From an uncultured Candidatus Saccharibacteria bacterium (GTDB lineage Bacteria > Patescibacteriota > Minisyncoccia > Phycocordibacterales > GWA1-40-21), in the NCBI GenBank assembly GCA_964455475.1, contig CAYVWL010000004.1, forward strand, positions 1 through 34,142: a stretch of 34,142 nt of DNA, written 5' to 3'. Below the pieces are notes generated by a model. The model was not told where the DNA came from and did not search any database. It worked only from the letters and a program-made list of their open reading frames with translations. This document shows, one piece after another, positions 1 through 29,493 of the stretch. The position numbers and the translations under genes are program-made. Numbering within the stretch: position 1 is the first letter of the stretch; the number at the start of each line of letters is the position of its first letter.

Positions 1-9
1 TGCACGTCT
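1..9 (-). ncRNA. 5' end of putative group I self-splicing intron (partial, continues beyond window)
   Basis: Exon end U33-G34-U35 can pair with intron GCA (U.G wobble at the splice site) around an AGACGU loop, forming a P1 helix. Only 9 nt are visible. Confidence 0.65.
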
Positions 10-43
10 ACAGGGGAGTGCTCTACCGTTGAGCTACGCCCGC
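10..43 (-). tRNA. 5' exon of intron-interrupted tRNA, most likely tRNA-Asp(GUC); 3' exon lies off the left edge
   Basis: Minus strand reads GCGGGCG TA GCTC AACGGTA GAGC A CTCCC CT GT|AGACGTGCA. Acceptor 5' strand, D-arm and 5' anticodon stem are intact, but the expected GGGAG 3' strand does not follow. Confidence 0.8.
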
Positions 44-157
44 GTGGCGATAAATCTCAAAAATGAGATCTATACTATTATACATAAAATTGCTTTTTGA
101 GCAATCCGAACACACCTCTTTTCTTAAGGGTATGACACTTTCATATACTACTAATTG

Positions 158-228
158 TTGCGGGGGCACGATTCGCACGTGCATCTCAAGGTTATGAGCC
201 TCGCGAATTACTGTTACTCTACCCCGCT
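158..228 (-). tRNA. initiator tRNA-Met (CAU), atypical D/T loops
   Basis: AGCGGGG...CCCCGCA-A acceptor with 1:72 mismatch, A11-U24 pair, anticodon arm CGAGG CTCATAA CCTTG, T-arm GCACG TGCGAAT CGTGC. CCA is not encoded. Confidence 0.88.
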
Positions 229-310
229 ACTGTTATTATTTCATTTTTTCATCATAAAAGCAAGGCATTGTTTTTCGTGGAAAAAATGCTATATTAAGCG
301 GGTTGTTCTT

Positions 311-381
311 GCCGATGTAGTTCAATGGTAGAACGGGGGACTCATAAGCCTCAAAAAATGGTTCAATTCCATTCATCGGCA
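311..381 (+). tRNA. tRNA-Met (CAU), probably elongator
   Basis: GCCGATG/CATCGGC acceptor, GTTC/GAAC D-stem, loop CTCATAA, T-arm AATGG TTCAATT CCATT. Lacks the Ile identity pairs C4-G69 and C29-G41. A31:G39 mismatch. Confidence 0.85.
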
Positions 382-388
382 CAATACG

Positions 389-410
389 AATAGCCACAGG
401 TGCTATTTTT
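389..410 (+). terminator. putative intrinsic terminator after tRNA-Met
   Basis: AATAGC-cacaggt-GCTATT followed by T-run. Confidence 0.45.
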
Positions 411-458
411 AATATTCTATGGTATCATAACAGCATAGTAATTTATGATACTAAAATC

Positions 459-809
459 ATGCCGTTAAAAGACCCCGAAAAAAGGAGAAAATACCATAAT
501 TATTATATGAAGGTTTGGTATCCAAAAAATAAGGAAAAACATCTCGGATACCTTAGAAACTTGAAGGATAAATTACTTAAATATATTGAGGATTACAAAA
601 GAGCCTGCGTATGCATTGATTGTGGAATAAGCGGAAAGGATTACCCCAGGATTTTAGATTTTCATCATGTTCGGGGGAAGAAACACTTTGATATCTCGGC
701 TCACTCCCATCGGACACTCAGTCTTGATAGGATAAGAGAAGAAATAAAAAAATGCGACATTGTATGTGCTAACTGCCATAGAATACGTACAATTTATAAG
801 AAGAAATAA
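459..809 (+). CDS. small free-standing HNH endonuclease (Zn-binding)
   Basis: CIDCG...LDFHH...KCDIVCANCHRIRT pattern, with a basic N-terminal helix. Confidence 0.8.
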   Translation: MPLKDPEKRRKYHNYYMKVWYPKNKEKHLGYLRNLKDKLLKYIEDYKRACVCIDCGISGKDYPRILDFHHVRGKKHFDISAHSHRTLSLDRIREEIKKCDIVCANCHRIRTIYKKK

Positions 810-1481
810 TTAGATATATTCAAACTCGCGGAAGACGAGTTCGTAAAGACCAATTACCCTCTTGGCTTCCCTTTCATTTATCATAAAATCCGAACCCTCA
901 TGAGCAATCTGATTCCTGATTTTGTGCGCTTCCCAGGCCGCCTCAATATTGGTAAAGTCACTGGGCTCGATGGACTTTAATTTCTCGCCAATACTTTCTT
1001 GCATATAACCCATCTTCTCCAAAATATCCGAGAGCATTATGTCACATTCCAATATAGCCAATTTCCAATCACTAGGGTTGGCGGAATTTATATGAGTGAC
1101 GACACTCTCCCATTTCTGATTTACGATCGGTTGCATTACATTGCTCTCCTTCACCATTTCTTGCCCAGGCAATTTCAGAGCGTCATGCATTTGCCGACGA
1201 TAGCGCATCAGATTATTGGCGGACCAGATCACCACGAAAATTAAGATCAGGGATAAGACAAAAGAAAAAGTAAACAGCTTCATCATAACCAAGACAGCAT
1301 AGTCTGGCAGAAGGAGTAAGAAATTCTTGCCTATTTCACTTAGATTTTGAGTAGTGTTATCTGGTAAAAATTTATTTGCCGAAAGAGTAAGCAAAGCAAA
1401 AACCACAAGAAAAGTAAAAAAGGTCATTCCTAAAAGAAGGGCGGGGCCGGGCGAACTGTCTTTGGATTTAGAACCTGCCAT
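810..1481 (-). CDS. membrane-anchored hypothetical protein with C-terminal HEPN/DUF4145-like RNxxxH motif
   Basis: Two hydrophobic N-terminal segments; C-terminus WKLAILECD...IGEKLK...AWEAHKIRNQIAH. Confidence 0.6.
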   Translation of the reverse strand: MAGSKSKDSSPGPALLLGMTFFTFLVVFALLTLSANKFLPDNTTQNLSEIGKNFLLLLPDYAVLVMMKLFTFSFVLSLILIFVVIWSANNLMRYRRQMHDALKLPGQEMVKESNVMQPIVNQKWESVVTHINSANPSDWKLAILECDIMLSDILEKMGYMQESIGEKLKSIEPSDFTNIEAAWEAHKIRNQIAHEGSDFMINEREAKRVIGLYELVFREFEYI

Positions 1482-1504
1482 GTGAGTATTTTACCAGATA
1501 ATTT

Positions 1505-29414: not shown

Positions 29415-29487
29415 GCGCGTTTAGCTCAGTTGGTAGAGCGTTCGACTTATACTCGAATGGTCGGGGGTTCGAGTCCCTCAACGCGCA
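29415..29487 (+). tRNA. tRNA-Ile (UAU)
   Basis: GCGCGTT/AACGCGC acceptor, TTCGA CT TAT AC TCGAA anticodon arm, GGGGG TTCGAGT CCCTC, A73. Confidence 0.93.
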
Positions 29488-29493
29488 CAAAAC

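Follow-up and report, generated by a model that had tools for sequence, protein, structure and literature searches.

Group I introns of subgroup IC3 in bacterial tRNA genes are reportedly known from Azoarcus and Anabaena through the work of Reinhold-Hurek and Shub (1992) and of Xu et al. (1990). Zaug et al. (1993), to go by the title of their paper, are said to deal with exons held by the anticodon stem, and a study by Nakagawa, likewise by its title, reportedly concerns elements of this kind at a non-classical insertion site in the phylum of the bacterium considered here. A sequence-only reading of the present locus had taken such introns to be described in Patescibacteria, which fits the literature as far as the Nakagawa title goes; in the papers readable to us we found none that names a tRNA-Asp group I intron in Patescibacteria. 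A survey by Williams (2020, bioRxiv 10.1101/2020.01.27.920355) gives the classical bacterial settings as Leu.3Ug, Arg.5Ug, fMet.2Ug and Ile2.5Ug, all of them IC3, adds 17 new settings for a total of 21, and reports that split tRNA genes are frequent, at 0.49 per genome, where metagenome assemblies of unnamed phyla are concerned. Its main text does not use the words Asp, Asn or 4Ug; outside of it stand Table 1 and Fig. 3, both images. The relevant portion of the tRNAscan-SE 2.0 paper (PMC8450103) describes that program as not designed to detect tRNAs split by group I introns.

The DNA analysed here (the window, 34,142 nucleotides) is an entire contig (G000:C4) of an assembly of 654,515 bases in 60 contigs (G000), rated 95.3% complete, and its sequence ends at position 1. 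Read on the minus strand from 43 to 1, this end gives GCGGGCG-UA-GCUC-AACGGUA-GAGC-A-CUCCC-CUGU and then AGACGUGCA. These are the 5' strand of an acceptor stem, a D arm, the 5' strand of an anticodon stem and the loop bases C32, U33, G34 and U35, after which the CUCCC stem is left unclosed, just as had been noticed from the letters. In the nine-base tail A1 pairs with U6, C4-G5-U6 forms a candidate P10 strand, and G7-C8-A9 (window 3..1) is the visible part of an internal guide GCAG for the exon CUGU. We interpret window 43..1 as the start of a tRNA-Asp(GUC) gene, comprising the complete 5' exon and nine nucleotides of an ORF-less, compact, IC3-like group I intron (about 200-230 nt) inserted between U35 and C36, with the assembly breaking inside the intron; we give this interpretation a probability of about 93%. 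Neither the contig nor the bin contains the ribozyme core or the 37-nt 3' exon; the strain itself would carry the whole intron. Positions 1-43 of the window receive no ARAGORN call and no Rfam match at the gathering score; the sequence-only reading was right that scanners miss the gene, and the miscall as tRNA-Tyr that it named as the alternative was not seen.

Table 1. Coordinates of the tRNA genes, the intron start and the neighbouring features in the window
Feature	Position	Strand	Basis and remarks
Group I intron start, first 9 nt (AGACGUGCA)	1..9	-	Window 9 holds intron nt 1; truncated where the contig ends
tRNA-Asp(GUC) 5' exon, tRNA positions 1-35	10..43	-	34 nt, 7-nt D-loop; ends C32 U33 G34 U35
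TGTATAAT, extended -10-like box	77..84	-	33 nt upstream of the tRNA 5' end; read from the sequence
tRNA(CAU) gene	157..228	-	ARAGORN; RF00005, 48.6 bits
tRNA(CAU) gene	311..382	+	ARAGORN; RF00005, 66 bits
Free-standing HNH endonuclease gene, 116 aa	459..809	+	ORF; PHROG HNH families, best E-value 1.8e-22
tRNA-Ile gene, anticodon UAU	29415-29488	+	ARAGORN; RF00005, 75.7 bits

The identity of the truncated gene was established from its orthologs. A search with the 34-nt 5' half, allowing up to three mismatches, was made in 61 genomes (G000 and 60 relatives). Fourteen of the 60 relatives have it (15 of the 61 genomes when G000 is counted), nine without mismatch and five with one to three mismatches, and the same pattern read backwards matches none of the 61. 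The loci are orthologous, having in common the upstream flank, the TGTATAAT box and the neighbouring tRNA(CAU) genes. In nine relatives the gene is uninterrupted and reads CTGT/CACGGGAG..., or more fully CTGT/CACGGGAGAGGCCGTGGGGTCAGCACCCATCGCCCGC-G or nearly so. ARAGORN identifies each of the nine as tRNA-Asp(gtc), and RF00005 gives 58.5 bits on one of them (L003); these intron-less orthologs, having the same exons, show that the exons once joined give a cloverleaf with anticodon GUC. The assignment to tRNA-Asp(GUC) with the loop CUGUCAC, proposed from the 5' half, is thereby borne out. The identity elements of tRNA-Asp in E. coli and yeast are G73, G34-U35-C36, C38 and G10. Among these, G10, G34 and U35 are present in the window, and C36, C38 and G73 in the orthologous 3' exon CAC...CGCCCGC-G.

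Five other orthologous loci (L002, L004, L007, L010 and L012) are interrupted and read CTGT/AGACGTGCAG..., the same as the window, whose nine-nucleotide tail equals the first nine intron bases in all five. Their introns are 203-232 nt long and end with G, whereupon the sequence resumes as CACGGGAG...CGCCCGC. The bases at the exon and intron edges differ, intron base 1 being A and the first base of the 3' exon C, and the last intron base being G and the last base of the 5' exon U. The insertion can thus be assigned without ambiguity to the boundary of U35 and C36, in agreement with the site first proposed. In the window's own genus, eight relatives have this exon, with the intron in three and without it in five. 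Splicing after U33, which would yield the loop of a tRNA-Ala(UGC), was considered and is contradicted by the intron-less alleles. The terminal guanosine predicted for the intron is found in all five orthologs, whose intron ends were set by exon matching alone; in the wider set described below a terminal G was a selection criterion. Two other predictions held in part. The 3' exon has the expected CACGGGAG...CGCCCGC in the orthologs, and the expected internal TTC is replaced by the T-loop of this lineage, GTCAGCA. As to the bases following the contig end, the orthologs do continue with the G that completes GCAG, and the foreseen G(GG) reads GC instead.

The missing half was sought throughout the assembly. 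G000 contains no 3' exon, no T-arm followed by CGCCCGC, and no overlap of this end with another contig end. The group I model RF00028 has no match in it at E<=10; the core motifs have no exact match, and one-mismatch matches occur for an 11-mer only, none of them in an intron or tRNA context. A regular-expression search of G000 for Asp-like anticodon arms gave none in a tRNA context. ARAGORN finds 31 tRNAs in the assembly, the missing ones including Asp, His and Thr(GGU). A tRNA-Thr(GGU) gene lies just downstream of tRNA-Asp in three intron-less relatives; both being missing here, the unassembled piece probably holds the two. No metagenome contig with the window's unique flank was obtained in exact-pattern scans of a set in which the window's own record may be missing.

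The intron-bearing form can be followed closer to this strain in unassembled data. We compared the Logan contigs (k=31) of four sequencing runs with the complete gene of a relative (L007:1300-1900). The best match to the window is in two of these runs, X1 (0.77 of the words sampled from window 1-1500) and X2 (0.76). X2 has a contig of 295 nt, at depth 9.26, consisting of the intron with 30 nt of exon on each side, which is the shape expected of a k=31 graph when the exons are shared with another allele. Such an allele is there: the joint 1534>1766, which skips exactly the 231-nt intron, is present at depth 80.1 in X1, 46.8 in X2 and 2.34 in X3, so that alleles lacking the intron, with the same exons, stand at a higher depth in X1 and X2 than do the contigs that contain it (about 9). 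Both forms of the gene, their exons being the same, thus coexist in samples resembling the source, and the contig probably breaks at this point because the two share their exons.

This mixture gives some room for a different explanation, in which the tRNA-Asp gene of the strain is intron-less and the last nine bases are a mis-join or graph tip contributed by a co-occurring, intron-bearing relative with an identical 34-nt exon. Besides the abundance of intron-less alleles in X1 and X2, the proneness of contig ends to error and the intron-less state of five of the eight same-genus relatives with the exon speak for it. The assembler, however, needed reads or k-mers spanning the unique flank, the 34-nt exon and nine intron bases. 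Moreover, X2 contains a contig with a loose end that agrees with the window's own upstream flank at 30 of 30 bases, and its bin depth, 9.09, is close to that of the intron contig (9.26) and not to that of the intron-less joint (46.8). This match, indirect and from one run, favours the intron-bearing form for this strain, and we hold a mis-join to be very unlikely. None of the contigs listed joins the window's flank to the intron, nor could any do so, k=31 being shorter than the shared 34-nt exon; the link from flank to intron in this strain accordingly consists of the nine terminal bases of the assembly and the agreement of depths in that one run.

A second explanation would make the stub a dead tRNA fragment or the remnant of an attachment site, that is, a 5' half left by recombination or integration with a tail resembling the intron by descent or chance. 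That the 3' half is not found in the assembly and that tRNA genes are, as is generally known, common targets of integration would agree with it. A relic would hardly be expected to look as this one does, since the half is 100% identical to functional orthologs and has kept both the promoter-like box and its synteny, and the nine-nucleotide tail is exactly the intron start, a coincidence with a chance of about 4e-6. Integrases normally duplicate the 3' part of a tRNA gene and not the 5' part. A remnant would also leave a 95%-complete genome without any tRNA-Asp gene. We judge this explanation extremely improbable and return to the split tRNA-Asp gene.

The introns of the five orthologous loci are all matched by the full RF00028 model, at 51.3, 49.6, 47.8, 46.5 and 37.9 bits (E-values from 9.8e-11 to 9.8e-7). 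The gathering score of the model is 50 bits, which one of the five (51.3) reaches while the other four lie below it, so that an Rfam run at the gathering threshold reports only tRNAs on the orthologs and the group I matches came with an E-value threshold. An 18-mer taken from the core (J6/7-P7-J7/3) retrieved 119 loci from a collection of species-representative genomes, out of an estimated 470 stretches or so, and among the 80 records listed for it most are MAGs of the Patescibacteria group. A structure comprising P1-P9 with the P3/P7 pseudoknot was drawn by hand and mapped onto an alignment of 44 distinct tRNA-Asp introns. The P1 alignment proposed by cmscan, which pairs residues of the D arm, was discarded, and P1 was set by hand and then tested.

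In that alignment 92.1% of the cells of the P1-P9 structure are paired, as against 36.8-44.2% when the partners are slid by one to three columns. Changes on both sides occur in 33 of the 56 pairs, and none of 500 shuffles reaches any of the observed measures. P3 is paired throughout (100%), with five of its six pairs compensatory, and family members show compensatory changes in P2, P3, P5a, P6a, P8 and P9. In P4 the variation is one-sided and confined to a single pair; P7 is invariant, its 5' strand partly by construction, most sequences having been retrieved with the 18-mer that covers P7. The two inner pairs of P8 hold only in the subgroup that was used to draw the structure. P7 is formed by G-A(bulge)-GACUA opposite UAGUC-C, which we take to be the usual guanosine-binding arrangement. 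The predicted group I core is thus found in the orthologs, with support for the pairings P3-P9 and P7. The intron looks like a member of subgroup IC3, by its compact core devoid of P5abc, the AAGAUAUAGUCC segment and the GNRA loops on P2 and P9. Other possibilities, namely an archaeal-type intron with a bulge-helix-bulge motif, a group II intron, or a tRNA gene that is permuted or split, have nothing specific in their favour beyond the brevity of the nine visible bases, and, orthologs with the same junction possessing the group I core, the U.G wobble, the terminal G and the P3-P9 and P7 pairings, their probability is close to negligible.

The P1 helix is formed by exon CUGU and intron GCAG, with the U35.G7 wobble at the junction, in all 44 distinct tRNA-Asp introns. 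The U.G pair that defines a group I 5' splice site is accordingly present as proposed, U35 being window position 10 and the G-C-A visible in the window (G7-C8-A9) occupying positions 3..1. A fifth pair, between intron base 1 and the base 5' of GCAG, exists in 92 of 94 introns of tRNA-Asp, -Asn and -Tyr as A-U, C-G, G-C or a wobble; five further introns are without GCAG in their first 30 bases.

For P10, the three bases 5' of GCAG were compared with the 3' exon in three registers (offsets 0, 1 and 2), offset 1 leaving base 36 unpaired. At offset 1 all three pairs form in 24 of 44 tRNA-Asp introns (CGU with ACG), 9 of 20 tRNA-Tyr introns (AUU with AAU) and 5 of 30 tRNA-Asn introns, against 1.2-3.1% with non-cognate exons, although the counts are inflated by relatedness inside each class. 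A P10 abutting P1 (offset 0) or shifted to offset 2 was rejected, these registers giving zero or one full match per class. The triplet ahead of the guide changes along with the 3' exon (CGU, CUU, AUU). The match of CGU with A37-C38-G39 that had been read as P10 is therefore, as judged from base-pairing, a real class-specific tendency, which the variant in the window displays; what does not stand is its universality.

The intron belongs to a wide family. With ARAGORN in intron mode and the rule of U at -1 and G at omega, a site could be assigned for 104 of 108 tRNA calls split by an intron: 41 loci in tRNA-Asp, 35 in tRNA-Asn and 20 in tRNA-Tyr, all after loop base 4, together with four loci at Leu.3, three at Met.2 and one at Phe.2. 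The introns at the CUGU/ site of tRNA-Asp, -Asn and -Tyr form one family, with the core 18-mer and the guide GCAG in common. In Patescibacteria this 35/36 family extends to hundreds of assemblies, with tRNA-Asp, -Asn and -Tyr as its hosts. The features that the Williams nomenclature would designate Asp.4Ug, namely CUGU/a...g/CAC, are common to all 44 distinct tRNA-Asp introns.

Group I introns also seem to be a regular cause of assembly breaks in these bacteria. In this order, 34 of 61 genomes have group I matches at E<=1e-3, up to six per genome, and at least eight of 66 such matches in the relatives begin less than 300 nt from a contig start. Such introns of tRNA genes break metagenome assemblies, and at the present locus the cause is visible as a mixture of alleles with identical exons. 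The main value of the locus lies in annotation: what looks like an essential tRNA gone from the genome is in fact a split gene lying where a contig ends.

In the intron-bearing relatives the split gene seemingly has to serve. A canonical tRNA-Asp query against five of them, 84-98% complete, gave the 5' exon of the split gene and partial matches, and no second full-length tRNA-Asp copy; the three longest partial matches (51-62 nt) belong to tRNA-Val, tRNA-Thr and tRNA-Ile, and the others cover only the first 36 bases of the query. As far as this query can tell, the split gene appears to be their only source of tRNA-Asp, and it would therefore have to be spliced, and efficiently. A metatranscriptome run (X10, an RNA library) contains a contig of 308 nt that corresponds nearly end to end to the unspliced, intron-bearing tRNA-Asp of a relative (L007:1496-1802), beginning 5 nt upstream of the tRNA start and extending to base 72, the last of the acceptor stem. 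This contig could be precursor RNA, DNA carry-over or a graph artefact. The spliced joint is not among the X10 contigs, an absence that is uninformative. Contigs are also unable to show transcript ends.

From the orthologs and the established chemistry of group I introns, a course of splicing may be proposed, in which the intron would excise itself. The TGTATAAT octamer lies upstream of the gene in all five aligned loci and, on this ground, is a candidate promoter of the pre-tRNA; a simple sigma-70 scan did not list the box and gave no -35 match. Transcription from an upstream promoter would yield a pre-tRNA in which exon CUGU and guide GCAG form P1, with the 5' splice site marked by the U35.G wobble. 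P7 would bind an external guanosine, which would attack that site. The terminal G of the intron would then take the same P7 site, and the freed 3'-OH of U35 would attack the 3' splice site, the 3' exon being kept in place by the anticodon stem, to which about half of the family would presumably add the three-pair P10 of CGU with A37-C38-G39. Ligation would restore the loop CUGUCAC.

The Met/Met/Asp tRNA cluster to which the stub belongs is conserved, being found also in relatives. In the window it is followed by the HNH endonuclease gene, 77 nt downstream of a tRNA(CAU) gene, which has no Pfam match and is absent from the syntenic spot in one relative (G010). Its close homologs (59-81% identity) in G004, G009 and G019 likewise adjoin tRNA(CAU), in the latter two directly downstream. 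More distant homologs (38-44%) overlap or abut group I matches: they lie inside tRNA-Asn introns at 35/36 in G013, G021 and G022, inside an intron in G044 whose host ARAGORN calls tRNA-His, and next to a group I match in G004. The HNH gene was considered as a partner of the tRNA-Asp intron and set aside as unsupported by co-occurrence, since, of the six genomes in which this exon is followed by the full intron (five) or by its start (G000), G000 alone has a close homolog (>=59%), and G004 and G009 have close homologs, yet the tRNA-Asp gene found there is intron-less.

Two introns of 207 nt, from two species of one genus (L012:1529-1747 in G018 and L036:1256-1474 in G023), are 100% identical, and their host genes differ, one being a tRNA-Asp with the odd T-loop described below and the other a canonical tRNA-Asp. 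Identical introns in two types of tRNA-Asp gene suggest, as far as such a comparison goes, a recent transfer of the intron. It is conceivable, if rather unlikely, that the ORF-less tRNA-Asp intron is currently mobile, and that HNH enzymes of the tRNA clusters would act in trans (collaborative homing) to move ORF-less 35/36 introns between the tRNAs with GUN anticodons, Asp, Asn and Tyr. The idea comes from lake metagenomes in which alleles of the gene with and without the intron occur together, from the location of the identical 207-nt introns in two types of tRNA-Asp gene, and from the presence in the window's tRNA cluster of an HNH gene with distant homologs inside tRNA-Asn 35/36 introns.

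Apart from its intron, the tRNA-Asp gene of this lineage has an unusual form. As seen in the orthologs (e.g. L003:1501-1573), the only tRNA-Asp has a 7-nt D-loop, AACGGUA, and the T-loop GUCAGCA, in which positions 54 and 58, near-universally U and A, are both G. This form is kept in 14 relatives of three families, with compensatory changes in the acceptor stem. The same-genus genome G009 has a canonical AGCUGGUUA / UUCAAGU form with the same acceptor stem. The T-loop is GTCAGCA in four of the 44 distinct intron-bearing tRNA-Asp genes and of the TTC type in 40. In addition to the two tRNA(CAU) genes, the window encodes a tRNA-Ile with anticodon UAU, and the bacterium may read AUA with it, a way of reading reported for a few bacterial genera in the portion of PMC8450103 that bears on it.

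The introns of this locus resemble those described by Williams (2020) in lying within the anticodon loop, in having U at -1 in the P1 wobble and G at omega, and in their ORF-less core of about 200 nt; they differ from the four classical types in the insertion site, after loop base 4 (35/36), and in the host tRNA, Asp. The stub appears to be a truncated member of a large intron family that has apparently been catalogued already, and we make no claim of discovery. The introns are also like the IC3 introns reported for Azoarcus pre-tRNA-Ile(CAU) and Anabaena pre-tRNA-Leu(UAA), with a length of about 200-250 nt, a short P1, no ORF, the J8/7-P7 segment AAGAUAUAGUCC and GNRA loops on P2 and P9. In contrast to these two, the host is another tRNA, the insertion is at 35/36 and not at 36/37 (Azoarcus) or 34/35 (Anabaena), and the candidate P10 skips the first base of the 3' exon.
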